DNA of 64,000 nucleotides from Euglena gracilis (GCA_039621445.1 CP154954.1:12332716-12396715); one strand, 5' to 3'. Positions 19,536-39,058 are shown, counted from the first letter of the stretch. Numbers and translations are program-made. The notes: a model not told the origin generated them from the letters alone.

Positions 19536-21149
19536 ATAATAATATTAATAGTACTAATAAAGCTATTTGATGCAATTATATTTTTGCTCGTTGACGCATC
19601 TTCAATCCAATCTGAAAAGGGTTGCCGCACCAACACTTTTTTTTCAACTGGATGTTATATTCAAGCTTCACTCGACCTGAACCCCGGACAAGCCAGCATC
19701 AGAGGGAACTATTGCTCACCTGGTCTTCTGCCCTCAACACCGCAACAAAATTCTGTCGTTATAAATTCCCTCATCCCAACGCTTCGACCTCCGCATCAGG
19801 TGTGGGATGCATGCTTGCTCAATCTCGGCCAGGGTTTGATTTCGAGGCTGTGTGGGGTCAAGGTATGGAGTGCAGGCTGTATTTTAGTCGGGTGCCGACC
19901 CCACCATGCTTGTGCTTACCAACCGGGGGGGGGGGTGCTATAGGGTGCCTGCCCCTAGCAGGCACCCCCCCGGGGGGGATAGGGGGGGACCCAGAAAATT
20001 TTCATTGAAAATGGCCTTTTCCGGGCCCCCGGCACCTTCGGCGCCGGGGTCGGAGGGGGTGCCTGCTAGGGGCAGGCACCCCCCAAAACCCTACCCCCCC
20101 CCCCCCGGGGGGGGGGGTCGGATCAGGTGCTATGGGGTGCTTGCCCCTAGCACCCCCCCCCGTGGGGTAGGCACCCAACTAAGCACAAGCTTGGACCCCA
20201 CCCCGAGGGGGAGTGCCTGCCTGGGCAGGCACTCCAAGGCACTCCCGATCCGACCCCCCTCCCCCCAGGGGGTAGGGCACACGGCCAAAAGTGCCCTAGC
20301 ACAGACCAGTGGTGCTGTGGACAGGCGGGGGTGGCGTTTTTGACCCCTTCCTGGAGGGGGGGGTCAGGTTTGGGGGGTTAGTGCTGTAGCACACCCACCC
20401 CGCCCTTTTCCAGTTGAAATTGGTTTGGTTGGACGGCACCCAAAACTGAACCAAAATAACCACAGAAATGACGTAAAATGGTTGCAAAAAAATGCAAAAA
20501 AAAGCAGCCCAAGAAACGGCGGACGTGCTCAAAATGACTTAAAATGACCTGAAACGGCCCTCAAAATAGCCAGCAATATCCAAAGATGGTGAAAATGTCT
20601 GAAAACCACCAAACAGACCTAAAATGGCCGGAAATATGAGGAACTTGCTTATTAGAACTAACTCAGCTCAAAATGGCCCGAACTGGCAAAAATTGGTGCT
20701 TCGTGACATGCATTTTCCGCACCACTCCAGATTAATCTAGGCGTTGTGGGCCAAAACAAAAGCAAACCTTCAATGCCCCTCTAGTGAAATTGAAGATTTC
20801 TGTCCCAGTGGAAGGAAAAAAAACTGGTGGAAAAAAAACTTCAGTGGAAGCCTTGGTTCGACCCCATTTCCTGGGAGTAAAAAAAAAACTGGCCAGGGAG
20901 TACATAGGGGACTTGGATGGGGGGCCAACCCAAAATCCCTTGAGGAAGTGACCAAAATCAGCCCAAAATCGAGCATTTTGGGCCCACTTTGGGCAATTTT
21001 TGGCAATTTTTGGGCATGTCCAAATGTAAACCACCCCCAAATATGCCAACAACCCATTTTTGGACCCATTTTGGGTACCCCCATTTTGACCCCCGGGGCC
21101 GATTCGTTGTATTTTTTCTCCCTGAAGGCAGCCCCCTTCCCCACCACTT

Positions 21150-21385
21150 CTGAGGACACTGACCTGGAGCAGTATTGGAAGCTGAGAGTGGTGTCTTGTC
21201 CACAGCTGGCGCAGGTTGCCTTGCGAGTGCTGTCCATTGCTCCAATTGAAGCAGCTGTGGAAAGGGCTTTCAGCCATCTTAAGGTCCTGCATAGCCCGAT
21301 GCGCAACAGTCTGAGTGACAAGTCTGTCCATGCTCTCGTGTTTGTGAGAATGAACGTTGTCCCTCTCGGTGTGATCTCCGTTTGA
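21150..21385 (+). pseudogene. hAT transposase C-terminal dimerisation-domain remnant
   Basis: DLEQYWK...CPQLAQVALRVLSIAPIEAAVERAFS...RNSLSDKSVHALVFVRMN fits the hATC pattern W...P.L..lA...Lsip...ERaFS...R..L...N. Confidence 0.85.
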
Positions 21386-21399
21386 AAAGCAAGCTTCTC

Positions 21400-21545
21400 A
21401 AAAAAAACTCATGAAAAGCAGCTCCTCAAAAAAAAAAAACAGCTCCTCAAAAAAAAAATCAAAAGAAGCTCCTAAAAAAAAAACATCAAAAGAAGCTCCT
21501 CAAAGAGCATCTCAAAAAAAAAAGCTCCTGTAAAAAAAAATAACT
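21400..21545 (+). repeat. Array of AGCTCCT(C) plus oligo-A units
   Basis: About six imperfect copies. Confidence 0.75.
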
Positions 21546-22405
21546 CTCGGAGCATCCAGAGTTGCCGGGGACCCGCCTGAAGAGAAAACCCCGGTCAAAA
21601 AAAAAACAGCAGGGGAGCCGCAAAGCAGGAGCATATAAAGGCGGGGGCCTGTGGTGGCTCACAGGTCAGCATCACAATAATGTGGGGCTGGTGCAGCCTT
21701 TCTTCCTAAAGCCCGGGAGAGCGCCTAACCTTCATTTTTGAACAGTTAACTAGTTAACTAGAGGCCCCAATTATTTAATTGACTGCCCCCCCGACAGTCA
21801 ATTAATTGATCACCCTTGCAGCAGGGCCTGTCGCTGGCCTTGTTTTCTGGGGTGGCCGCCCAACTGGGTGCTCTACTCATAACCAAGGAACTGGGTCACA
21901 CCATTGCTGCCTTTTGAGATGGCCTTCGGTAAGTGACAAGCTTGACCCTGTGCCTCTGGTTTTCCTACACCCTCGCCCACCTCGCGCTCCGTCAAGCGGT
22001 GCTGGCCGTGGCTTCGGCCGGACGTTGCGCTCTCTGCCCCCGTTCTCACTTGTACTACCCTTTTCTCCACCCACCCTCCTCCTCACTCCTTGCACACACT
22101 GTGCCTGGATGGATTCGGTTCGCCCCACCACCGTTTTTACGGCTGGCTGTCTAGTTAGGTCCTACCAGGGAGTTCACGGTGGTGGGGCGAACCGAATCCA
22201 CCGACCAGTGGCACAGCCTACTGGATTTGAGTGTTCGAGGGTGCGAGGCTATATACAACGAAGGAGCGTGGGTCGAGTGGTGAGAGCAAGGGCAAAGCCC
22301 AAGCAGAGAGCGATGATGGGTGGAGAGGTGTGAAGTGTGCATGCGCGGTGGTGTTCTCCGGCTTTGTGGCTCCGGAAAGATGGTGCAACGAGGAGCATTT
22401 TCACC

Positions 22406-23870
22406 TTATGAGTTCAAGATCATACGATCTGTGGCTCTTTCGGCCAACCGCAGCTGCCGTGCAACTGCACGGGTCAGGGTGATGGCCAGGTTTTCGGTCA
22501 ATTCCTGAAGTTTTCGTTGTTTGGCTGTTCCAGAATATGAATTGGTCGCGAGGCGTAAGACATCGCGTAGCAGTTTGGAGGCTGCCGGTCCTGTGCAACC
22601 CCAGGGGTTAAATGCAGCCCCGATGTACTCCCACTGGTGGCGGGCGCACCGTTCTTCAGCTTGTGTTCTCTTGTGCATTTCAGCGTCTGGTAAAGTGCGC
22701 TGAACTCGGGTCAAGTTCAGAGGCCACCGTGATGGGGCCAGCGGGTGTTCAATGGTGACATCCACAGCGAGATGCTTCCCTTTGTTCCACCCCAGGAGAA
22801 GGAGATCAGCGTCACGGGTGCCACCCTCGCATCCCTGTTCTTTGCGAAGAGTGATGCCGGAGCGCTGGCACAGGTCAAAAATGGCGTCACGAACACAGTT
22901 GTGCCTTTCTGTTATGCCATTCCTTCTGCAAGCCAGGAGGTGATCGCCAAATGGATCGACTGCCTCAGCACACAGGGGGCACAGGAGCATGTCCGTTGTT
23001 GGGATCAGGGGTAAGCCAGTCCAGAAGCGTAGAAGCAGTCTGTATTCGTCCGGAGCCAGGACGGTATTCACCGACCTGGATGGTAAGACGGTCATCCAAT
23101 TTTGAAGGAAGGCAGAGGATTGGCAACGAAGCCTGGCAATGTCCCGAAGAGGTGCACCCTCCTCCAAAGTTGCCACGCGCACGGCGTGGAAACGTTCGGC
23201 CCACCACGATTGAGTGGAGTGATCTGGGGTGGAACAGGCCAAGGAAGAAGGGTTGGCGATCCAGGAAGCCAATGGTTCGCTGTGTGGGCCCAAAGTGTCA
23301 CGAGCCAGTTTGGCGACGGGGATGGTATCTGGTAGCGGGAGCAAGCGCCAGGGCGGAGGGATATTGAAGCCTGGCGCTCGTTGGGAAAAACCCACGCAAG
23401 CAGCCAAACGGGCAGCTGGTCTTTCCAACTGGGGGTCTGTGATGCCCCACCCTGTCTTATTGCACGGCAAGGTGATTTGTTTCCAATGCAAGGCAGACAG
23501 GGGTGCCCCCACAATGTCACAGGCAGCGCTCCGGATGGAGTCGGAGATCACTTGCACACTGTGAGTCCCGGAGGAAATGTTGGTCTGACGCAGAAGGTGC
23601 GTGACGCGGCAGCCATCCAGACAGTTGCGCAGCAAACAATGTTGGAGTTGAGGATCCGGCAGTTGTTGGAGGCGCGAGATGGTAGCTTGAAATTTTTCGG
23701 ATGCCTTGGCCCACGTGGTGTCAGAAAAGGTGCAGTCACCAGGATAGTCGCAGGGTACCCCTAGGCACAGGATGCCACTGCCCGGTCCCCATGGGGTGAC
23801 CGGGAAGTTTTGTGCAAGGTGGTCGGGAGGCAGGATCTGAAGAGCCGCGGGTTCGGAGTGGCACATGGTA
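22406..23870 (-). CDS. C-terminal part of the polyprotein: RT thumb, CCHC knuckle and restriction-like endonuclease
   Basis: THLLR; QITLP..TGWGI; CPLCAEAVDPFGDHLLAC; RHN motif (ERHNCVRD); RDADLL...AVDVTI (PD..D-type catalytic motif). Confidence 0.9.
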
Positions 23871-25350
23871 CACCTGGTCCCCACAAGGCACACTTAGAGG
23901 GGTTGAGGTGGAGCCCAACGCTGCCAAGTGCCGTGGCCAGAGAAGCCGTAAAAGGCAGAACATCAATGGCAGGGCCGATGACAGTGCCGTCGTCCAAGTA
24001 CCATGCCTGCCACACCGTGTTGGGCAAATTGGCCGAAGCCTGTTGCAGCGCCTGATGGAGACCCAAGGCAAAGGCAATGGGCCCACATGTGTCCCCTTGA
24101 TGGACACCGGTCCTGCTGTGACACAGCACGTCACCCTGGCACAAAAGTGGGACGTCTTCTCCGTAGGAGAATCGGAGCCAGTTATAAAGGGACGGGCAGA
24201 GGTCCAGGGATGCCTGCAGGAACGCGGATCGATCAATGGTGTTGAAGGCGTTGGAAACGTCGGCCTGGAAAACCACCCAATCGCCATCCACTGGCAGAGA
24301 CGCCAGTGCGGCCTGTACCGCCAACCCGACTGTCTCCGCTCCGTAGCGCACCCCCACTCCCAATTGCTGCGGGAACAGCTGAGACGTTTCCGCTTTGCAC
24401 TGCGGGTGTCGCAACAGCATTTTCCCAATGAAGCGCCGCAGGCAATCCCCCACGGCGATCGGCCGTAGACCGCCATCCTTTTTGGTAAGTGGGATCAGGT
24501 TTGACGTACCAAAGATGATCGAGGCTTTTGCTGGCAGAGAGCCCTCCCAGGCCTTCTGAGCCAAGGACCCCAAGGCTGTGTGCAGCGGGCCTGTCCCGGC
24601 CTCACGGTCCAACAAGTCCCGAAGGTGTTGAGGACGGAGACCAGATGGGCCAGGGGCGCTGCCACGGGGGAAAGAGGCTGCAGCTTCTTGCACAATTGAA
24701 GACCAGATAAAGTCATTAGTCTGTGGCGTATTGCCTGCCCCAGGTAGCGGCAAACTGGCTCGTAATGGAGACCCCTGTGGATGGAGCGAAAGGAGCTTCT
24801 GCATCACTGCTGAATCCCCAGGCGATGCCAGGGGCAAAGAGGTGAGAGCGTCCACGGCCTTGCCGAGGGCCCCTTCTTCAACGAGTCCGCGCACCCGGTC
24901 CATAAGGCCACGTGACACAGAATCAGAAGTAGAGCCAGAGGGGTTGGCGCGGGTGGTGGGCCGCTTTCGCCGTCTGTCAGAGCGAAGCGGATCAAACAAA
25001 GCGGCAAACTCTCCTGCGTGCCACTGTGCCAGTCTCTTTTCCAGGAGGCAATGCAATGTGTGTTGATGGGAAGACGAGGTTTTGGGAGGGGCACCAAGAA
25101 CGAGTTTCGGAAAAATGAACAGGCGGGGTAGAGCTTCCCAGGTTTGGGCTTGGAGAAAGGTCTGAATGGAGGATGCAAGGGCGTCACAAATGGCGTGACG
25201 ACTTGATACTGGGATACGGCGAAGAGTGGGGCAGTTGGTGGAGAGAACCACCTGCAGCTCGGGCTGCAAATCTGGGCACGGGAGAGACAGGGGAGTGCCA
25301 ATCCCGACGGGTTGGTGCGGTGAAGGGGAAGTGGGACGGAGGGGTGTGGA
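23870..25350 (-). CDS. Reverse transcriptase (CRE-type)
   Basis: SAPGPSGLR; LIPLTKKDGGLRPIAVGD; QQLGVG..GAE; DVSNAFN; GVHQGD..GP..F; WYLDDG (YLDD at 23989-24000); GLHLNPSKC. Confidence 0.96.
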
Positions 25351-25766
25351 GAAGCGTGGACGGCCGAGGCACCCTGGTGGGGGCATTGGCAACGTTCTCT
25401 TGCCCGTAGCAAGGTCCGACAGACGGCGCAAGTCGTGGTCGCAGTAGCTCGCAGAAATTCGGGGGGGGGGGATCGTCCGGCGGCGACGTGTTGAGAGACG
25501 TGAGATAGGACCTGAGAGCGAGTCATGGTTGTCCGCGAGCGTGGGCAATCTGCAAAGGGGCAGGTGTCATGGGAGGCAAAGGAAAACCCCGGACCAGGGT
25601 CGGACGGTAGGCCGGGATGCAGCGTCGTTGCTGCTGGGGAGGATGGTGCGGGGGACAGGGAGGCCAACGCCATTTCTTGAGACAGACCGGTGTGGGGTAT
25701 AGAGGGTGTGGAGGCTTGTGACTCCCGATTGTGGCGTGTCTTTTTGGCGGAGTCCCGATTGGTGTT

Positions 25767-25830
25767 GGGCCCCGGATTACTCTCGATGTCGCCGCAGGAG
25801 AGCAGGGCGAAACCTCTGCCAGAGCGCAGA
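25767..25830 (-). other. 2A/StopGo ribosome-skipping peptide ...GRGFALLSCGDIESNPG/P
   Basis: Exact D(V/I)ExNPGP motif preceded by LLxCG, in frame in ORF 24804..28073. Confidence 0.9.
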
Positions 25831-26219
25831 AGGGCAGTTAGGGAGGAAAAGGGTGGCAGCCAGCGTTCCTGAGCGGAGGTGGGGAAGCGGAAGGCGCACC
25901 GAGTGGGCGCCGGACGTGGCGGAACTGTTGCCCGGGATGGTAGTACGGACGAGCAAAACCAAGGCCAATGCCACTCCTTACAAGAGCAGCATTGTATTGG
26001 CGGTGGGAAGCGGGTGTCCCAAAGTGTGTGCTGATGGAAGACGAAAAGGCGTTCCCGGAAGGCCAGCACCGGGGATGAGGTGTGTCGTTGTATCCATTTG
26101 AAAGACTTGTGCCAGTCCACCAGGGATTCAGGGAAAATTGGAGGCTGCGGGAGTGAGGAGGGGGGCAGCGTGAGGGAGGATGGGGAGGGGCACAAGCGTG
26201 ATGATGTGGGAGGCTGGTG

Positions 26220-26609
26220 GATGAGGAGAATGATGGTTTGCCACCGGGGCGGAGGGAGAGGATGAATACCGAAACGTCGATAAATAGAGACGGGAGGAAG
26301 GAGCATGGAAGCCGATGCCAAGGCAAGGAAGTCATGTCGCGCAGGGTGATCGGAGGGGCAGACAAGGAACAGATGGCCTCCTTCCGTCTGAAGTTTGCGG
26401 AGGACGAGAGGAAGAAGCGAAAACGGAGGGTTGGCCCAAATAGGCTGCGGCCTGCTCCAATCTTGGAGAAATGCGTTCTGGTGTTTATCCCAGAAGGCTG
26501 GGCATTGGCTGTTGTGCGGCGCCGCAAAGGCGTCAATAATAGGGAGAGAAGTAGGTGAGAGCGTGTGGACGGCGACACGAAACCAGCCGGGCTCGAGCAT
26601 GTAGTCATC
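26220..26609 (-). CDS. Amino (probably N6-adenine) DNA methyltransferase domain, phage Dam/DIRS-type
   Basis: DYML...IDAFA..HN.QC..FW....NAFLQDWS....WANPPFSL...VL.KL..EG..L.LV.P; motif I-like IDAFA and catalytic NPPF at 26421-26432. Confidence 0.85.
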
Positions 26610-28760
26610 CGCGAGAGGCAGTCCGGTGTCGGGGGCTCCCGCTGGGAGAAGGGAGGAATTTGGGCGGGTTGGGCCTGCTTGGCTTGAGCGGCCCACTGGT
26701 GGTGGACACGCAGGGGGATGGTACGGCGGTATCAAAAGATACCCCTGCCCTGGCGTGGGAACCACCGGGGTTTTAGCGGAGGGGTGGGCGCCCGGACGAA
26801 TTTGGGCAATATCCGGCAGAGCGGGTTGGTCTTCTGGGCTCACAGAGGCGGAAGGCAGGCTGGTGGGGGGGGTAGACAGGTGTTCCGTGGTGCAGCTAGA
26901 AGTGTGAGCAGAGAGAAGGAGGAGAGTGTTCCGAAGGGACGAGGTCTGTGTTATTTTTTGCAAACAGAGCGTGCAGACGAAAAACCTCCCCTCCGTAGGG
27001 CGGAAGAGAAAGTTGCACCAGCGGCGCAGCCAGATTTGTGCGGCCACAAAATTCCTGCTCCGAGCGTACTTTCTTTTCCGCAGGCAGATGGTCCGAAAAC
27101 GTGCGGATTGGCTGCGCCAATGGCTCAAGTACACCCCTTTGGGTACAGCTGGCTGAGTGGCCGCCCACTGTCGCAATGAAGCGGCGGTGAGGGCAACGCG
27201 CCGGCCGTTGAAGGACATCGCCCCGTAAAGATCCTCCCCCCCATTGGATGAGACATTGCCAGGCGAAAACAAGACCATGGGGGACTGTTCCTGGTCACCT
27301 GATGAGGGACGGTCCGAGAGGGATGGAGGCCCCAGATAGCTTGTGGGGAAGCCATCCGGGTCCCCATCCGCCCCCCCGGGCCCCGAGGCTGAGGGGGCAG
27401 CGCACGGAAGGGGGAGGGGCAGGACAGGGGGCAGGGCAGGCGTTCGCCCGAAGGCCAGGGCTGGGCCAGCAACCGGGGGGAGGGCGGAAGCTTGCACCGA
27501 AAAAACCGTGCAGTCCGCCGAGCCCTGGCCTTCCCACAGCAGTGCCTGCTGCAGGGCCGGGGGAAGGCGCTGCCAAGTCTGTATGGGGATGGGCCCATAC
27601 CGGCTCGGCAGAGCCATCCCAGACCAGCTGCGGGGCACCACCACCTTGATCTGGGGCCCCCCGGCCCCAGGTGTGGTGGAGGAGGGGGGGGGGCAGGGCA
27701 GGAGGGAGGCCAGGGGGGGGAGGGGGCAGCGGAAAACCAGAAAACTGTGGGAGAGGGGGCTGTGGGGGGGTGAGGTCTCCAAAGCCTTTTTTGTGGGTGT
27801 CAACATTTTTGGGAACAGGACCACTGGGAGAGCCAATAGCAGGGGCAAGTATGTATACTGAATTGTGGCTGTCTGAAACATTTGCTGCAGAAACATTTGC
27901 TGCAGAACCCTTCTGTCCAACATTTGTGCACTGAGGATTGGGGCTACCAGAAACATTTGCTGCGGAAACATTTGTTGCAGAAACATTTGCTGCTGAACCC
28001 CTCTGTCCAACATTTGTGCACTGAGGATTGGGGCTGCCAGAAACATTTGCTGCAAAACCCCTTTGTCCAACATTCAACACTTGTCCAACAGTCCTCGATT
28101 TGAAATGCTTCCCAATGAACCCCACCCCAGACACAGGCACAACAGGGGCAAGGGAAGCCACTGGGGGGGCACTGTGACCAGTTTGTGGGGGGGGGGGGCT
28201 GTGTGTCACACTGGGGGGGCCAGATCCCAGCAAATCAGACACAGGGTGGGTGGGAGAGGGGGTGATTGGGCTCACAGGGGGGGGGGAAGAACACATTGAA
28301 CCAGGGGTGGGGGCAGATTGGGGGAAGAGGGGGCAGGGGGAGCAACGTGCCAACCAGCCAAAGCTGGAATCTGGTCAATGGGGGGCTGTGACACAGGTGA
28401 AGGGGGGTGGGGGGCTGTTGCTGTAGCAGGGGGCGTCGTTAGGCGGAGCAGTTGTTCTCGAAGTGCAGCCTCCTCAGCTTTTTGTTTCTTCTCCTGTGCC
28501 TTCATTCTGGCTTGCAATTGCTTCAGCTCCACATGTAAATTGAAGATAGTTCGATGTCGTTTGTCAGGCCGCTTGCTTTTGCCCTTCAGCACTGCTCTGG
28601 TCTGCTCCTCTGGCTGCTTTGGAGGGGGCATTGGTACCTCGTTGACACTCTGTACTGAAGCCGGACTGAGGGTAATGTCCATCGGGTCTTCGACATCATC
28701 CACAGTAATCTCATCCGGGATATCTTCAGACCCCACCAGGGGCTTTGCATTGTCCGACAT
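26610..28760 (-). CDS. N-terminal part of the retroelement polyprotein: coiled coil, Pro-rich and repeat region, C2HC-like Zn finger; two frame breaks at G/C homopolymers
   Basis: ATG at 28760, 10 nt after the SL; ELKQLQARMKAQEKKQKAEEAALREQLLRL coiled coil; AANVS/PNPQCTNVGQ repeats at 27875-28075; CTLC...H...C near 26890-26975. Confidence 0.65.
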
Positions 28761-28770
28761 GATATGCGAA

Positions 28771-28795
28771 CGAAAAAAAATAGACACTCAGAAAG
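28771..28795 (-). other. Euglena-type spliced-leader exon sequence
   Basis: Minus strand reads CTTTCTGAGTGTCTATTTTTTTTCG, identical to nt 2-26 of the Euglena SL exon ACTTTCTGAGTGTCTATTTTTTTTCG. Confidence 0.93.
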
Positions 28796-31739
28796 GTTCA
28801 CCAGGGTTCACATTTAGGATTTGCGTACTAAGGGTGTTTCCTAACTTTCATGAACGGAAAATGAAAGGTTTCACAGATTTTATCTTTCTTTCAGAGCAGT
28901 TTTCATGAATTGAACAACCCTAGCCCTGTATATAGCCTTACTCCCCCAAACACTTCAAATCCCGCTGGGGAGACCAACCTAGCCCTAACTAAGTTGGAAA
29001 GTTACGCTGCTGTCATTTGCCAAGTTTCGCGAAGCCTCAACCAACCCCCATGCCCTGAATTGTTTGTTTTGTTTGACATCATCTGCATTTTCTTTTTAAA
29101 AAAAAATACAGATCTCTGACCTTCCACCTCTAGTCCACTTCATCAATTCTGCCCATGCCCCCCAACATCCAGGGACAACGGGATGCCCCTGTGCCTCCCA
29201 TGTGTGAGCAGCAAAGGCAATGACCTGGGGCTGATGCCGCCAAGGCTCACGCCCCCAGCGAGCCTGGGCGAGTCTCCCTGCTCCCCCCCCCCGAGGGCAG
29301 CTCCGACGCTCCGACGCCCCCAAAGCACAAGCAGGCTGGCCCACACGTCATCGGCGTTTGCGCTGGGCTGTGATCCGAGGGAGTCGCCGCCAAGGATCTC
29401 TCCCTCGGTGAGCCCGGGCGGGCCTGTCCCTCCCCATGGTGCTGCCGCAGTCCCCACTGCCGGCCATTCCCACTTCCCTTCCCCGAGGTGCACCCGCCGT
29501 GTCAGTGCTCCCCCCTCATCCCTAGCACCAGCCCACAGTCGGCCTCACCATCGCCACCTATTCCATCCCTCCCCCATCTTCACCGTCCATAGCGGGGGGT
29601 AGATCTGGCCTGGGGGGGGGGGGGGCTAGGGTGCCAACCCTAGGGTCAGCCCACGGTCGCCAAAGGTCGCCAAAGGTCGCCCAAGGTGGCGTCCGGGAGA
29701 CCCCCCTAGTGGGCCGACCCTAGGGTCGCCGGCTTAGGGTCGACTTAGGGTCGGGGGTCGTTAGAGTCGACACCCCTCCCCCCCCCCCCGGTTACCGGAT
29801 CTGGGCGGGGGGGGGGTGGGTGGTAGTGGGCCGACCCTAGGGTCGGCCCACGGTCACGAAAGGTCGCCAAAGTGAGCCACAAAAACAACTTACCATGCCC
29901 CCCCATGTAAGACCCCCCCATACCCTTCCAATAAGTTCACTTACAAACTTCATCTCTCTTGATAACATAAACTTGATAAACACATCCTTGTAACTTGAAT
30001 CCCTCTAGATTTCACTTCTCAGACATCTGATGCAAAAAAAAAAAGATTCTTCACCAGGGCACGTTGCGTACCTGTGGAAGAGAAAAATAAGGAATGGCGG
30101 ATTGTTCGCGATTTGGTTATAGCGCGGGGTTTATTAACGCGGGGTTTATTAGCGCGCTTCGGCCGTGGAGCGCGCGGTAATACAGCGCGCCTAAAATGGC
30201 CGCGTTTAAGCCCGAGCGGGAATTACCCACCCGCGGTAATTGTCGGTCCCCGGTATAAGACACTCCCCTGGCCGGCCTTCGACCGGCCCTTTGGCCGGGA
30301 CCGACCCCCCCCCCCCCATATAAGACCCCCCCCCCAAAGGTGTAGAAGTGGGGGGTCGGGGGGGGGGGGGGGCGGGGGACGGCCGCCCCCCCCCCGAGAT
30401 TTTGGGAAGAAAATTTTTTGAAAAGTGTGTGATTCACTCATCACATTGTTCGTGCTTTTTTCAATTTCTCACTCTGAGAACTCAACTTTTCATTGTACTT
30501 TTGGGTGTTTTGCTGTTGGACATCGCTACCGTCTCGCCGCCCTTAGGGCGGGCAAAGACGTCCTGAACTCATGGCTCGGAAGAGGCGAAAATCTCGGCAA
30601 CAGGAAAACATGCATCTCCAAAGCACTTTTTTTTTCTTCAAGAGCACACAGTTTTTGTTGACAAGTTTGGCTCTTTTTGAGGAAGGTTTTTGGATTACCG
30701 TCAGCCGCCCTTTCGGCGGCAATATATTTTTTTGTTCTGACACAAATCCTAAAACACAAAAAGACGTCACCGTTGTTGGGCGGCTCTCCCAAATTGTGAT
30801 GGATTGGTGGCATAATGTAAAAATGGCTGCCGTTTAGCCGCCCTTCGGGCGGCTTGAAAGCTTCCAAGTTGTGATGGATCGGTGACACAACGTCAAAAAT
30901 TGCCACGATTATTTTTGTTACATTCAACGCCATCTTTTTTTTAAAAAAAGCACTACCGTTATGCCGCCCTTCGGGCGGCTTGAAAGCTTCCAAGCAGACC
31001 TCCATTTAGAATGTATCACCAAAAATTTTTTTTACGTATCGCACGTATCACAGCCTAAAAATTAATGTATCACATATGTATCACCAAATTTTTTTTACTG
31101 TATCACATATATGTATCACCAAATTACTGTATTACTGTATCATATATATGTATATATGTATCACCAAATATATTTTAATGTATCGCATATGTATCACCAA
31201 TTTTTTTAGATTTTTTACATTTTTACATTGAATGTTTTTCCCCTTTCTGTTCCGCTTTTCATCCTTGTTTCTTTGCCTCTCTGCAGACAAATGGAACACT
31301 TTTCTTGTGATAATGCTTTGGAGGACAGCTACGCGGAGCTGTGCAACGTGGAGGACGAGGGCATCCCCGATTCGCCTCCTGGAGAGGGTTTTTTCATCAG
31401 AATCTGCCCCCCCCCAGAAAAAAAATTGAATGTGCCCACCTTGGCCTTTGACAGGCATGAAATTCTCTTTTGATGAGGTGCACAAGAAACTCAGAGAACT
31501 GCCCAGTGCAGTGCTGTCGACGAGGCAACATCGTCCTTTGATGGAATTTCTGTTTCCAATTCGAGTGGGGATTCCATCACAGAAAGTAGTCTTTCCGCTT
31601 CTTCCGAAGAGAGTGGGGCGCAGTGGGACCTCGAATCCTCTACAGAATCATCCTCGTGGCATCAGTCGGGGTTGAGGAGGTTCCAAGAGAGATGGCAATT
31701 GGAGGTCGTTTCAACACGGAAGGAAGAAAGTGATCACTC

Positions 31740-32075: not shown

Positions 32076-33923
32076 GGAGCTGGGGTCCCCACGGCCAGCC
32101 AGACCTCCTCCTCCTCTTTTTTCACCAGCCACCAGCCAGACCTCCTCCTCCTCTTTTCTCCCAGCCACCAGCCACAGCCTCCTCTTTTTTTAGTGGCTTC
32201 AAAAATTATATAGGGCGAAGACCGCACGACGCAACCTCCTCGGTTTTTATTACGCTCGACGGCTGCGCTCGCCAGGTTTAATCACAACATCCACCCAGGC
32301 GGATGAATCAACAGCGACCAGCAGTAACCGGGGTCCACGGCACCAGAAGTGCTGCGCAAGACGAGACTATTTATTTTTCGGGTGGATGAACATTTCTTCG
32401 ACATTTTTGACGGCAGCACCATATGACTGCGCCGGAAGAACCGGAAGGGGGGGCAGTCGACCCCCCCCCCCCACACCCACCACAACATTTTCACCAATTT
32501 CGGGGAAACGGGGATTTTGGCCAGGAAAGTTTTTTGAAAAATAAAACCCAAAAACACGTGATTCTTGAAGGGAAAAAACTTTTTTTCACAAAAAATCTCA
32601 AAATTTTCCGTCCTAAAAACTCATACTTTTGAGGAGGGGGGGGGGTGAAATAAACGAAGGTCAAAAAAGTAAACAAACTTTTGGCACAGTCAAACTTTAC
32701 TGACATTTTTCTCGTTGAAAAACACATATTTTGCCAAAAAAAATGCAAACAAAATGCTTTTCTGCCCCCCCTTTCCAAGAGAATGGCACCCAAACAACTC
32801 CTTCCTGAGAGAATCCTGTGGCCCAAAAGCTGGCCACCACATCTAGCCCAAAACTGGCCAGAACATGTGGCCCAAAACTGGCCAGCACATCTGGCCCCCA
32901 AAAAAAACCATGACATTGCACAAAATGTGAAATGCAAAATTTTGGGTCGTTTGCCAGATTGAAAAACTTCTCCCCCAATTTTTTGGCTTCCAAGAACATT
33001 TGTTGAACAGCAAATAAAGAACGCAAGGAACAGAAATGGCAGTTTCAGACGAAAACCAGCATCTAAGGACAAAATGTCTGTGAAATCTGTCTTCAGGTAG
33101 AAGTACCAAGCAGAAAACAAGTAGACCCACCAAGGGCCTGTCACCGTGTTGCAGGCAGGCCTCTGCTCGATCGAATGTGTATGTGTTCAGAGCAAAGGCC
33201 TGAGTGGCCTGCATGTGGTGATGTTGGCCCTCTTTCCACAAAGCAATAAGTTCCTGTATTTTCACTTCATTTCAGCACCCTGTACTTTCATCATAACCAT
33301 CCCACGCCGCTTCCACACGAAATGGCATTGTGACACCGAAGGAGAAGGATTGGGAATGCAAGCATTTCTTTGCGTGTAGGTGATTCATAATTTCTTCAAA
33401 AAAAACATGTGCTTCGGTCTTTGATGTGCCCCCATGCACCAAATTAACTAGAACAGAAATTTGCATACTACAACATTCAAAATGTGGTATTTTTTCAAGA
33501 TGTGTTCTCTCCCGAACTTTCTTCCGCTTCGCTTCATTTCATGGACTGGTCCTTTTTCTCTTTTGGTATTCCGAAGTGTATCGTGCACACAGTATAATTG
33601 GTGCAAGATGCAGTTCGGAACTGTGAGGTCGCGGGTTCAAACCCCGCTGTGTGCAAGTTTTCGTCATTGGAAAATCTTTTTTGTAAAGAGCACCCAGAAT
33701 TAGGACTTACCCAGTTCGCCACAAGAACTGAAAAAATTTTCCACCGCGGCCAGCCAGACCTCCTCCTCCTCTTTCCAATCCTCAACCCAGAATCCAGCCA
33801 GACCTCCTCCTCCTCTAAATCCCCCAGCCAGCCGTGGCTGGCCATGGCTGGCCAGACCTCCTCCTTTTTTTTTGCCAGCCAGCCAGCCGCGGCTAGCCGC
33901 GGCTAGCCAGATACCCCAGCTCC
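32076..33923. mobile_element. GGAGCTGGGGT-TIR family, copy 2
   Basis: Same 11-bp TIR as copy 1; 3-bp TSD ATG; same subterminal and 21-bp repeats as 6778-8164. Confidence 0.88.
33585..33655 (+). tRNA. tRNA-like sequence (CGG in the anticodon position, Pro-like), probably a pseudo-tRNA or SINE head
   Basis: Acceptor stem GCACACA/TGTGTGC; T arm GCGGG-TTCAAAC-CCCGC; anticodon arm TGCAG-TTCGGAA-CTGTG; A-box-like AGTATAATTGG; D arm short and irregular. Confidence 0.55.
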
Positions 33924-36043
33924 ATGCCTCAAAGATGAAAAAAAAAGATGGCAGGGACCTGTCTTGGCAGACAGGTTAGCACCACGGAAGTGGGGCTGGA
34001 ACAGCCATGGGAACCTGAGTTCCTCAAGCCCGGGTGAGCGTCTTATGTTTGTCTGTAAATTTTTCATCTTACAAATTTGTTTGTGCTTCACAACTTTTAT
34101 TCTATGTTTCACCAAGGAAAATTTGTGTATCACATATGTATCACCAAATTTTTTTTAATGTTTCACATGTGTATCACCAAAATTTTTTTAATGTATCACA
34201 TTAATGTATCACAGGTACGTTGTGATACGCACCAAATGGCGGTCTGCTTCCAAGTTGTGATGGATCAGTGACATACTGCCAAATATTGCCACTTTTTTTT
34301 GTTACATTCAATGCCATCTTTCAAAAAAAGCACTACCGAAGAAATGTATATATTTGGTCTTGTCGAGGATCTCGCCCCCCCCCCCCGAGAAAAAATTACT
34401 TCTACACCCCTGACCCCTCCCATATAAGACCCCACCCTGGGATTTTGGCTCCCGAGCGAGGGGGGGTCTTATGCGGGGGGGCATGGTAGCCCCCAAGTAT
34501 GTTGCCAACATAGAAGGGAATTTGTTATTTTGGGGCCCTGGGGCAGCTGGGCAACAAAGGGGTTTGCCATCCAAAACGTTAGGGCAGCACGAGGGATTTT
34601 GTTATTTTGGGGCCCGGGGTTGGGTTACACAAGGGATTTGCCCCCCAAAACTGGTGGGTAACACAAGGGATTTTGTTATTTTAAGTCCGTGTACCCTCCC
34701 CTCCGACTCAGGACAAAGTCGGCGTACCCTACGACGGACTCAAGGGTGACAAAGTCCGGGGGGCGGGGGCGCGGACTTTGTCCTGAGTCCGGTGTACCCC
34801 CCCCCCATTTCCACCAATGGCCACCTTGATGTTTCCACCACTAGGACTAATGCAAATGGAGCCCCAGAACAATTACCAACCCCCCCCCTATTTGTCCCCC
34901 CCCCCCCTAATTGGCCAGAGCCCAGGTGGCCAATTAGGGGGGGGGTACTCATTTCAAGGGAAAATGTCTTTATTCGGGTTTTTTGGGGGGTTCGCGACTG
35001 TAAAGGACAGGGTCCAGGTGGCCAATTAGGGGGGGGGTTAGGGGTAACCCCCCCCTAATTGTCCCCCCCCCCTAATTAGCTAGAAGGGGGGTCCGGGCCG
35101 CCCGGAGGGCGGCCAAATAGAGGGGGGGGGGTTGGTATCCTCTTGCTGTTGTGACGCGCCAGGGAGGGAATAGGGAGCAGCTACCGTAAAAACCTGGTAG
35201 TGCCACTGAATGTCTCCAGGGGAAAAAACGGTAGCAGACAGTTGGTGTCCCCCTCATTGCTTTCGCTTCATGTTCTCGACACGAGCTGGCAAGGGAGGCA
35301 TCTCCTGGCCGTCGCAACGAGGACAACACCAACTGTTGCGGGGAGGGGGCATAGAACGGCCTGAATCGAAGTGCATAGAACGAACGGAATCGAACTCCAA
35401 AATTTTCAGCCGTGATGTTGTGTTCACAAATGTAACGAACTTTGGAAAATGGCATTTTGCTTTGGGGACGATGGGATTCTTGGTTTTTGTTGATTTGTAT
35501 AGCACAGCCAATGCGTTGACATACGATGTCAACGTTTGCGGAGCCCATTCGTGCATGGGCACCCCAGCCCGTTGACATGGAAGCTGCCTTTGTGCCTTTT
35601 CGCAATCCTCTCAGCTTCTGTGTCATGCAAAGCGTGTACCGAAAGCACCTACTTTGCAAACGCCACCATGTAGTCATCCAAATCAGTGGTGGCATAGCCT
35701 CGCATTTCGCAAACTTTTTGAAAATTGGCGAGGCGGTATATCCCCCCTTCTGATTTTTGACGTTGCCCTGGGCTGGGGCACCGTTTGGGTGAAAACATCC
35801 CCAAAAAGCTCTGTGTCCGTAGTTTCTGTGTTCTGGGGTTCAACTGCCACCTTCAACCCTGCCAACAACTTTGCGGGTGTTGGCAAAGGTCCCAAGACAA
35901 CCTAAGCGACGTTTACGACTTGTGCGGGCAACATGGAGCTGTGAAGACAAAGACAAGTGTACCCTGAGCGACACTAATGTTCCTCATTAGGATACACCGA
36001 CTTTGTCCTGAGACGGAGGTGGGGTAGTACACGGACTTAAAGC

Positions 36044-36164: not shown

Positions 36165-37322
36165 TCTTGATATAGGGGCCCTCGAACAGTTGGGCAACAA
36201 AAGGGATTTGCCCCCCCAAATCAGTTGGGTTACACAAGGGATTTTGTTATTTAGGGGCCCTCGAACAGTTGGGCAACAAAAGGGATTTGCCCCCCAAGTC
36301 AGTTGGGTTACTCAAGGGATTGCCCCCCAAAATGGGTGGGTAACACAAGGGATTTGTCCCCCAAAAATGGCCCGAAAATTTCCTTTTTTTCTTTTTGAAG
36401 GGGGGGGGAGGTCGTGGTGTGGGCCGACCCTAAGTCGACTCTAGGGTGGTGGGGGGGGGAGGTCGTGGAGTGGGCCGACCCTAAGTCGACCCTGGGTCGA
36501 CCCACTGGGGTTTCTGGGGTCGCCACCCACTCCACAGCCTGGGGGGGGTCGACCATAGCGACCTTTGGCGACCTTTGGCGACTGTGGGCCGATCCCAAGG
36601 TTGAGCGCTTGTTTTTTTTGAAACAAAAAAACATGTTTTTTTAAAAAAACTAAAAAACGTCATGGAGGGTTTGGGGGAAAATTTTTTGCAATGTTTTTTT
36701 TTAGAAAAAAGTTCATTTTTATCTCTGCAACATTCATTTTTTTTTTGGTTGAAAGCATGATTTTTTGCACCAGAAAACACAGATTTGGATACTTTCACAC
36801 ATAAAAAATTTTTAGAGGGCCTGTGATGCCTAATTTGACAAAATATTCAGGTGGATTCCTAATTTTGAGGCATAAATTTCGCAAAATTTGGAATGGTGAT
36901 GCCTAATTTGGTGTCAAAATGCTAATTTTAGGTTGGGGATTCCTAATTTGGAGCCTAAAAAGGATTTCCCCCCAAAAATTCGTTTTTGGTGATTCCTAAT
37001 TTGGCCACCGAAAATGTGATGTTCCCCCGTGACCCCCCCCCCCCCGTTACCCCCCTCGTGACCCGAACCACCCCCAAAAAATTTTCTTCAAAAAATGGCT
37101 ATTTCGCAAGGAAAAAGGTCAATTTTTGCTTTTTCAAAAAAACATGTTTTTTTGTGTTTTTTTTAAAAAAGCATGTTTTTTTTAAAAAACAAAAAAAAAA
37201 CGTCAACCCTGGCCGATCCTAGGGTCGGTCCACTACCCCCCCCCCAGGCCAGATCCGGGAGCTGTCCAGAGCCACGTTTCAGCTACAGGAAGCAATCCAA
37301 TCCCCTCGCCCCGTGCAGTTCA

Positions 37323-37373
37323 TGGTTGCGTGATCTTTGTGCAGATGGTGACATTGAACCAAACCCAGGTCCA
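37323..37373 (+). other. Second, orphan 2A-like peptide WLRDLCADGDIEPNPG/P
   Basis: Exact DIExNPGP motif in ORF 37173..37595. Confidence 0.7.
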
Positions 37374-37559
37374 GCCAAACGTTCCCCAGGATGCCGGAGC
37401 AATGTTCCTGATAGCACATCAGAACGGGCACATGTTGATGGGTCCCACACGCACATCCCCCCCTGGCTGAAAACGCACATCCACTGGACGGAAATGGGGG
37501 GACATGGGGGAGATGCCACCATAGATTCATTTAAGATTGTGTTACCCCCCCCCCCCCCC

Positions 37560-39058
37560 GGGGAGTGGGTGTTTAAAAAAAAGTCAAAAAATTGAAAATA
37601 GTTTTGTTTCACGACGATGTTTTTTAGGCCTCCCGGACCCAGAAAACCTGTTTCTGAGCCCAAAATGAGCATTTTTCGACTCCCCGGCACCCCGTTTTGG
37701 GCCCGAAACCCATGGAGGGGTCGAACCCCCCCCCCCCCCCCCGGGGTTCGAACCACCTTGGAAACCGGCAGATTATCATGGCTCCGTTCCCGGAATTTTT
37801 TTTTATCAGTGTCGAGCGAATGGATTTCTAGTTGCCGAATCACGTCCGTTTGACCCAACTCCCTGCTAGGACCGAGTTATTCAGATGTGAAGGGGTCCAA
37901 ACTGGGTAGGATTTGGCCCCTCTTCCAACTCTGCCATTTCGCCAGGGACCAAATAACGAAAATATCTTGAGAAAACAGACATTATTTTCTGACGAAATGC
38001 ACCCCCGGAGGCCCTTTATCACCCTCCTGTTTGCCATTTTGGCCACTGACACGCCTGGCCCGTTCCGGCGCGCTTTTGCGGCCCAAACGGCCATTTTGGG
38101 GTGTTTTTTTGGGCCGTTTTTTTGCTCAAAATATCTCGACAATGAAGCAAAATCAAAGAAAATGTCCAGACAGCAAAAATGAAGCCCTTGGAACACTCTA
38201 TCCAACCATGGTTTACTTTCCCCCCAAACTCTTCGTGTAGCCCGGGTTACGGCCATTTTTCGGCCAATTTTGGCCCATTTCAGGGCCATTTTGGGTTGTT
38301 TTCAAAGTATGTTTGAAATGAAGTAAAATTAAAGGAAATGTCCGGAGACATAAATTGAAGCCCTTACAATGCCTATCTAATGGTATTTTGATTTCCCCGC
38401 AACTCCCTGCATGGCCTGAAATGTGGCCCAAAACAGCGCGGCAGGCATCCGACTTGGCCGTTTTTGGCTGTTTTTTTGGGGCCAAAAAATCAATTTTTCT
38501 AAATTTTCTCAAAAATGGTCGGAATCAAAGGAGATGTCCAGAGATCTGAGTTGCAGCCCTTTAAATGCCCTATCTAACAGTATTTTGATTTCCCCACAGT
38601 GCCCAAGTTATGGCCATTTTTCGGCCAAATTTGGCCATTATGTACAGTTTTGGCCTGTTTTGACTTTTTTTGGCCGTTTTTGATTTTTTTGTGTCGAAAA
38701 ATATTGAATTTTTTTGCCCAAAACGATGTTTTTTGGCCTCCCGGACCCGGAAAACCTGCTTTTTTGAGCCGAAAATGAGCCTTTTTCGACCCCACAGTGC
38801 CCTGTTTTTTTGGGCTGAAAACTGTGGATTTTGGGTCAAAAACGGGTCAAAAAAGTCGAAAAAATCGAAAAAAATTTGTTGCCTGAAACAATGCTTTTTT
38901 TGGCCTCCCGGACCCAGAAAAGCTGTTTTTTTCAGCCGAAAATGAGACCCCCCGGGGCTTTGTAAATCTTAAATTACACGAAGTTTGCAGTGCCAGTCTT
39001 TTCGTCCTTCCATTACGTGCAAGTCCTATTAAGGACTCAGCACTATTCAAAACCTGGT
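37560..39058 (-). repeat. Inverted copy of the repeat family at 51550-54480
   Basis: Reverse-complement matches such as GGCCTCCCGGACCCAGAAAA, CAGCACTATTCAAAACCTGGT and GGGTCCAAACTGGGTAGGAT. Confidence 0.8.

Follow-up and report, generated by a model that had tools for sequence, protein, structure and literature searches.

A DNA copy of the spliced leader at the head of an R2-like retroelement in Euglena gracilis

The retrotransposons without long terminal repeats (non-LTR) of the CRE/SLACS/CZAR and NeSL groups interrupt the exon of spliced leader (SL) genes, lie within SL arrays and have SL-gene sequence on both sides. These elements are described as specific for SL genes, CRE, SLACS and CZAR in trypanosomatids and NeSL in nematodes (PMC4640811; PMC10161547). 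A different association of leader and retroposition is reported in dinoflagellates and Perkinsus, where DNA-encoded relicts of the dinoflagellate spliced leader (DinoSL) mark retroposed genes (Slamovits & Keeling 2008, as reviewed in PMC6050394); according to that review, such a relict is taken as a sign that a mature messenger RNA (mRNA) has been reverse transcribed. Here we describe a DNA copy of the euglenid SL at the head of a retroelement of about 6.4 kb, both on the minus strand, in a 64-kb stretch of Euglena gracilis (GCA_039621445.1 CP154954.1:12332716-12396715; hereafter the window). All results on the element come from this one copy, within the window. We conclude that the SL-headed retroelement is real and moderately novel and that more than one mechanism is in contention for its 5' end. 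No euglenid retroelement with an SL copy at its 5' end was found described in the titles and opening lines of abstracts that were searched (supplements and subscription papers lay outside this scope).

Read 5' to 3', the minus strand runs ...AAATGTGAACCCTGGTGAAC-CTTTCTGAGTGTCTATTTTTTTTCG-TTCGCATATC-ATGTCGGAC..., with ...GGTGAAC directly 5' of the SL copy. The 26-nt E. gracilis SL is printed in PMC6242988 as ACTTTCTGAGTGTCTATTTTTTTTCG, and from 28795 down to 28771 the window is identical to its positions 2-26 (25/25 nt exact). Position 1 is C here and A in the E. gracilis SL, which is equivalent to one extra C after 'AC'. The same SL body is printed as a primer in PMC5654406 and as the Eutreptiella SL in PMC3621762, where it is reported to be 100% identical to that of E. 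gracilis. A 24-nt SL core, with as many as 3 mismatches allowed on either strand, has a single match in the window and none in any of 100 dinucleotide-shuffled windows, placing this match far beyond chance. The two halves of the SL, searched separately, both return to the same site, and no second SL piece was found in the window. A first-pass annotation, made from the sequence with its origin withheld, had concluded from the SL that the host is a euglenid; the match bears this out at that level and does not name the species, the SL being identical in Eutreptiella and E. gracilis.

The leader thus stands in DNA directly 5' of a coding region and ends at the last base of the SL exon. It is followed by TT and not by GT, the canonical donor that SL RNAs are reported to carry (PMC10679874), and in place of the donor, intron and Sm-type site of an intact SL RNA gene it leads into TTCGCATATC-ATG and an open reading frame (ORF). 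The 10-nt spacer is an mRNA-like distance by comparison with Eutreptiella, whose 5' untranslated regions (UTRs) after the SL are reported to average 21 +/- 25 nt, with 56% shorter than 15 nt (PMC3621762). The start context ATCATGTC agrees with the reported euglenid AnnAUGnC, having A at -3 and C at +5. Both the position of an SL copy 10 nt before an ATG and its distinction from an intact SL RNA gene had been proposed in the first-pass annotation, and both hold.

The annotation had also placed the SL on the strand of a retroelement, and the element is a genuine one, with Pfam matches to a reverse transcriptase (RT) and to a methyltransferase as well as a profile match to R2. The profile in question, A1, was built from 14 sequences (13 relatives and the window's C-terminal piece) and matches the R2 proteins 9nl3/9dou with E 6e-31. 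This match is a single stretch, positions 202-921 (about 720), running from RT motif 0 through the linker and the CCHC knuckle to the restriction-like endonuclease (RLE), while LINE-1 ORF2p scores far lower against A1 and matches in the RT only. One relative, P0002, matches R2 by itself with E 1.2e-8; for the RT and C-terminal pieces of the window copy, each compared singly with the PDB, there were 0 matches. By profile comparison, then, the element is classed as an R2-like, RLE-bearing non-LTR retrotransposon. An RLE C-terminal to the RT is shared by the R2 group and by the SL-gene-specific elements (CRE/SLACS, NeSL).

From its 5' end the element encodes a coiled-coil-like ORF-a, a Dam-like methyltransferase, a 2A peptide, a zinc finger, the RT and a CCHC knuckle with the RLE (Table 1). 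Between about 25323 and the pol stop (22406) the sequence is about 40% identical to database pol proteins. The methyltransferase region is common to seven database proteins (P0080-P0086), five of which have a Pfam RT in the same polyprotein and all of which carry a 2A motif, with one to four per protein. These shared polyproteins indicate that methyltransferase and RT belong to one element family and are therefore not a nested pair. We argue from these seven proteins that the combination of Dam-like methyltransferase, 2A, zinc finger and R2-like RT/RLE in one polyprotein is a genuine architecture. Judged against its relatives, which are uninterrupted at the first break, the copy is defective as assembled, with at least two frameshifts; no long homopolymer lies at the first of them. 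A second 2A-type motif, D-I-E-P-N-P-G-P, occurs at about 37350 in a short ORF on the plus strand (37167-37595) that has weak matches to the N-terminal parts of P0080 and P0084. There is no RT beside this motif and no SL upstream of it, and the ORF is probably a fragment of a related element.

Table 1. Positions in the window of the leader copy and of the features of the element downstream of it
Feature	Position	Strand	Description
SL copy, DNA	28771..28795	-	25/26 nt of the euglenid SL, SL positions 2-26
Spacer, TTCGCATATC	28761..28770	-	10 nt between SL copy and ATG; 5' UTR if the mRNA was trans-spliced
Start ATG	28758..28760	-	10 nt downstream of the SL copy
ORF-a	28272..28760	-	162 aa, from an acidic N-terminus through a basic, helical/coiled-coil-like middle to a proline-rich end
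Tandem repeat	27875..28053	-	90 bp, 2 copies, between ORF-a and the long ORF
Long frame	28073-24804	-	holds the Dam-like methyltransferase domain
Family-homologous N-terminal part of polyprotein	25293..26942	-	tblastn extents
Dam-like methyltransferase domain	about 26394-26540	-	Pfam PF05869, E 5.7e-9
2A-type ribosome-skipping motif	25767..25790	-	D-I-E-S-N-P-G-P, canonical; motif scan
Cys/His zinc-finger-like region	25380..25562	-	upstream of the RT; aligned stretch in P0082/P0086
First frame break (-1)	25323..25380	-	alignments to uninterrupted relatives change frame
RT domain	23881..24486	-	Pfam RVT_1, E 1.2e-10; motifs SAPGPSG, RPIAVGD, YLDDG
Second frame break (-1)	23866..23869	-	inside pol; alignments to relatives
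CCHC knuckle, RHN, RLE motifs	22751..22981	-	DADLLLL and AVDVTI; invariant columns in alignment A1
Stop codon of pol	22406..22408	-	
Perfect 25-bp hairpin	22110..22200	-	3' UTR; fold -66.1 kcal/mol, z -8.1, 0/200 shuffles as stable

The locus is best read as a copy of an R2-like element that is full-length but has since become defective, and we give about an even chance to the view that its SL is the scar left when a trans-spliced, full-length element mRNA was copied into complementary DNA (cDNA). The element RNA would have been handled like most euglenid mRNAs, with the SL trans-spliced to an acceptor 10 nt before the start codon. The element's own RT would have copied this mature RNA to its capped 5' end, or to within 1 nt of it, during target-primed reverse transcription (TPRT), and in the daughter copy the SL would have replaced, in DNA form, the outron and AG acceptor of the parent. 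The exact 3' boundary of the SL, with TT and not GT beyond it, fits this proposal because trans-splicing yields such a boundary automatically, and so does a match that ends at position 2, because a cDNA of a capped RNA would end there. Trans-splicing followed by end-to-end reverse transcription would thus produce the exon boundary, the mRNA-like distance to the ATG and the 5'-terminal end without coincidence. Trans-splicing is estimated to affect more than 70% of E. gracilis mRNAs (PMC10679874), and a trans-spliced element RNA is therefore the default expectation. The encoded non-LTR RT with its R2-type CCHC/RLE, as recognised by sequence comparison, suggests a machinery that copies RNA from the 3' to the 5' end and lends support to this proposal, and the lack of a 5S gene and of a second SL piece in the 64 kb speaks against an SL/5S array context. 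We infer three things here, namely the origin of the SL by trans-splicing, the membership of ORF-a in the element and integration by TPRT.

Several observations weigh against the origin of the SL from a trans-spliced element mRNA. The first 1.85 kb (28795-26942), from the SL to the first family-homologous residue, has no relative among 1.84 billion representatives or 110 fetched proteins, and because it has no detectable relatives this stretch is tied to the RT part by contiguity alone. Together with an ORF-a that lacks homologues, it means that the sequence headed by the SL may not be the element. The claim of the first-pass annotation that the element begins with the SL accordingly stands as far as contiguity and strand are concerned and falls short on the element's own 5' end. 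The mismatch at SL position 1 counts against the proposal too, as does the provenance of the R2 link, which comes from profile A1 and relative P0002 rather than from the window's pieces by themselves. There is a single copy, and a parent that has the outron and AG acceptor is not at hand for comparison. Directly before the spacer stands CG, not AG, and for this reason canonical splicing cannot give a daughter copy the same 5' end again; such an acceptor-less copy has no obvious route to re-expression, and the persistence of the family is left to be explained. In addition, elements with an RLE are reported to be mostly target-specific (PMC4640811), and this makes an SL-gene target more probable from the outset.

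The other end of the element gives a further point of this kind, as insertion of an mRNA by TPRT is not demonstrated there: neither a target-site duplication (TSD) nor poly(A) is present, and the 3' end of the element is not definable. The only A run of at least 6 after the stop is a single 6-mer at a distance of 1.3 kb. The 65-nt upstream flank, aligned with 21200-22420 in search of a TSD, gave a best local score of 19, against 16.9 +/- 2.2 in 200 shuffles with a maximum of 26. R2-type elements are not known to need a TSD or poly(A). By analogy with such elements, the RT may bind the 25-bp hairpin of the 3' UTR. No second copy of the element was found when 21501-29500 was compared with the window by self-BLAST. 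The repeated 10-mer CCCTGGTGAA, found in the upstream flank and at 30050-30059, was rejected as being at chance level (5/100 shuffles reach 2 matches). An empty-site paralogue of the flanks was sought and likewise rejected, the search returning only satellite-like repeats and one weak 69% match (21640-21726 against 33950-34043), none of them collinear with the upstream-flank matches.

That the SL functions as a heritable 5' module of the family, and is not a passive scar, is a doubtful proposition, to which two routes are possible. By the first, insertion exactly at the exon-intron junction of an SL gene would give the element a borrowed promoter and an SL-headed, SL-capped message without trans-splicing; by the second, the SL encoded in DNA would direct initiation or re-splicing, and daughters would carry their own expression signal.

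It is unlikely, in our judgement, that the locus is an orphan SL-gene insertion. By this account SL RNA genes would be the family's target, cut where exon meets intron; the SL exon and promoter would be left just upstream, and transcription of the element would yield an RNA already headed by the SL. The mostly target-specific habit of RLE bearers favours this account, with SL exons among the known targets (PMC4640811), and SLACS-type RTs are annotated in the euglenozoan Diplonema (PMC10161547). In its favour too, some E. gracilis SL RNA genes are reported to be dispersed outside the 0.6-kb SL/5S repeats that hold most of them (PMC2784804), and the missing TSD and poly(A) would fit an R2-like insertion. 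Set against this, no 5S gene occurs within 2.7 kb upstream or elsewhere in the window. In Rfam searches, neither 5S ribosomal RNA (rRNA) nor any other small-RNA family reached the gathering score in the 64 kb, and none appeared at E<=10 in 27500-31500 or 20800-22450. Nor does the 1.6 kb after the stop hold an SL intron-like or small-RNA match, with the limit that Rfam may contain no euglenid SL RNA model. The cut would also have had to fall exactly at the splice donor, with the intron lost or unrecognisable downstream, and SL position 1 does not match. The negative searches with SL halves, Rfam models and flank alignments agree with the first-pass annotation, which had seen no second SL fragment, 5S gene or TSD. 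Of the three models that it had offered, an orphaned SL-gene insertion is contradicted in its tandem SL/5S form by the absent 5S gene, and trans-splicing followed by reverse transcription is the one that we favour over a permanent built-in leader.

Such a built-in leader, captured once through trans-splicing or through an SL gene, transcribed ever since as a piece of the family's 5' end and inherited by all copies, is in our view quite unlikely. The SL might then serve as an internal promoter or initiator, a role that has been proposed for retroposed DinoSL in dinoflagellates (PMC6050394), or be re-spliced at its own AG. Positions 9-10 of the SL form an internal AG that follows pyrimidines. 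This AG could be re-used as an acceptor and would leave a 16-nt relict; the searches with SL halves found no such relict in the window, and no partial SL follows the full one as re-splicing would predict. Intactness of the SL (25/25 nt) in a copy with at least two frameshifts in its coding part also favours inheritance of the leader, but 25 conserved bases are too few to show selection, promoter evidence is lacking and only a single copy is at hand.

The 5' part of the element bears on a further alternative, that the SL and ORF-a, perhaps with more, were retrocopied from some unrelated host mRNA and came to adjoin a 5'-truncated element through template switching or through insertion next to it. 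ORF-a has a coding-like pattern of GC by codon position, the GC profile being informative for ORF-a only. It has 0 matches among the 1.84 billion representatives, its best score in Atlas is 0.76, under the lead threshold, and a local BLASTP of ORF-a, ORF-b and the N-terminus of ORF-c against the 110 fetched proteins reached a best E of 0.59. The lack of any relative for 28795-26942 suits a junction of unrelated pieces, but ORF-a is equally without host-gene relatives. Upstream of the methyltransferase there are about 720 codons here, longer than the about 150-470 residues of the relatives, and three in-frame stops and the tandem repeat separate ORF-a from the long ORF. On the other side, strand and GC level are continuous, and the N-terminal parts of the relatives are themselves mutually unalike and proline-rich. 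C runs of 12-13 nt lie at 28190-28290 on the minus strand beside the ORF-a stop, which adjoins a C12 run, and the breaks in frame that part ORF-a from the long ORF may reflect wrongly assembled homopolymer lengths and not mutations. We regard a junction of this kind as improbable, below the two preceding alternatives. An assembly artefact, with the SL-bearing end derived from cDNA contamination or a mis-join, is very improbable, for nothing speaks for it directly beyond a region rich in homopolymers and repeats, and the sequence runs unbroken and without N through the junction into an ordinary repeat-rich flank.

Upstream of the SL lies AT-rich sequence followed by palindromic repeats of G and C runs (29600-30400), and on the 3' side of the element are T-rich 26-bp tandem repeats (21385-21540). 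With regard to a specific repeated target such as 28S rDNA, the flanks of this one copy are unrelated repeats, and no rRNA was found in the window. Around both ends, Rfam searches for SL RNA, HDV-like ribozymes and RNA like that of the signal recognition particle (SRP) gave nothing credible. The 18 largest ORFs that lie outside the element include no recognised host gene. An open-ended ORF at 2-1462 on the plus strand encodes an integrase core and H2C2 zinc-binding domains (Pfam rve, E 2.6e-13) and is an LTR-type retroelement that runs off the start of the window. A module of about 90 nt occurs twice on the plus strand (21640-21726 and 33950-34043) at 69% identity, with two small hairpins and paired stem changes; it matches no Rfam family and may be an undescribed small RNA or a repeat resembling short interspersed nuclear elements (SINEs). 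At 33585-33655 on the plus strand Rfam reports a transfer RNA (tRNA) with 33 bits (gathering score 29), while ARAGORN finds no tRNA in the window.

An SL encoded in DNA is a built-in timestamp of reverse transcription. If full-length copies generally carry one, it would be a simple marker with which to count and date euglenid retroposition, as DinoSL relicts are in dinoflagellates. The origin that we favour, if true, would make this an element of the long interspersed nuclear element (LINE) type that depends on host trans-splicing for its expression and not on an internal promoter such as that reported for L1Tc (PMC1874656). Since daughters would lose the splice acceptor, either few master copies would be active or the SL itself would restore expression. 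Should the SL be a heritable module, by either of the routes outlined above, it would represent a new way for a retrotransposon to exploit trans-splicing.

The locus resembles the SL-gene-specific CRE/SLACS/CZAR and NeSL elements in having an RLE downstream of the RT and an SL at the 5' junction of the element, in a euglenozoan. It departs from them in having a whole SL exon upstream, on the 5' side only, with nothing SL-like downstream and no array or 5S gene; the SL-gene sequence that flanks those elements on both sides within SL repeats is not found here. With R2 (9nl3, 9dou, 9nl2, 8gh6) it shares an alignable RT, linker, CCHC knuckle and RLE, but it has no rDNA context and no HDV-like ribozyme at E<=10, and it carries an extra Dam-like methyltransferase and 2A peptide. 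Dam-carrying retrotransposons have been described in E. gracilis, some with RTs that branch with LINE-like RTs (bioRxiv 10.64898/2026.05.21.726589), and like those elements the present one encodes a Dam-like methyltransferase inside a retrotransposon. That preprint treats its elements as of LTR/DIRS type or as possible chimeras, a suspicion that falls on those with LINE-like RTs, and the term 'spliced leader' has 0 occurrences in it, whereas here methyltransferase and R2-like RT/RLE stand in one polyprotein, as seen in the relatives.

DinoSL relicts are, by analogy, the closest precedent for the favoured origin from a trans-spliced mRNA. As in those relicts, the genome itself encodes a trans-spliced leader, set immediately before a coding region with an mRNA-like distance between them. 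Poly(A) and a TSD, as hallmarks of retroposition at the other end, are not seen here and may not apply to R2-type integration. The lineage and the SL are different, and there is one complete SL in place of tandem relicts. Unlike DinoSL, the euglenid SL has no terminal AG, so that exact re-splicing cannot restore the same 5' end. Finally, where DinoSL relicts tag host genes, the sequence tagged at this locus is apparently the retrotransposon itself.

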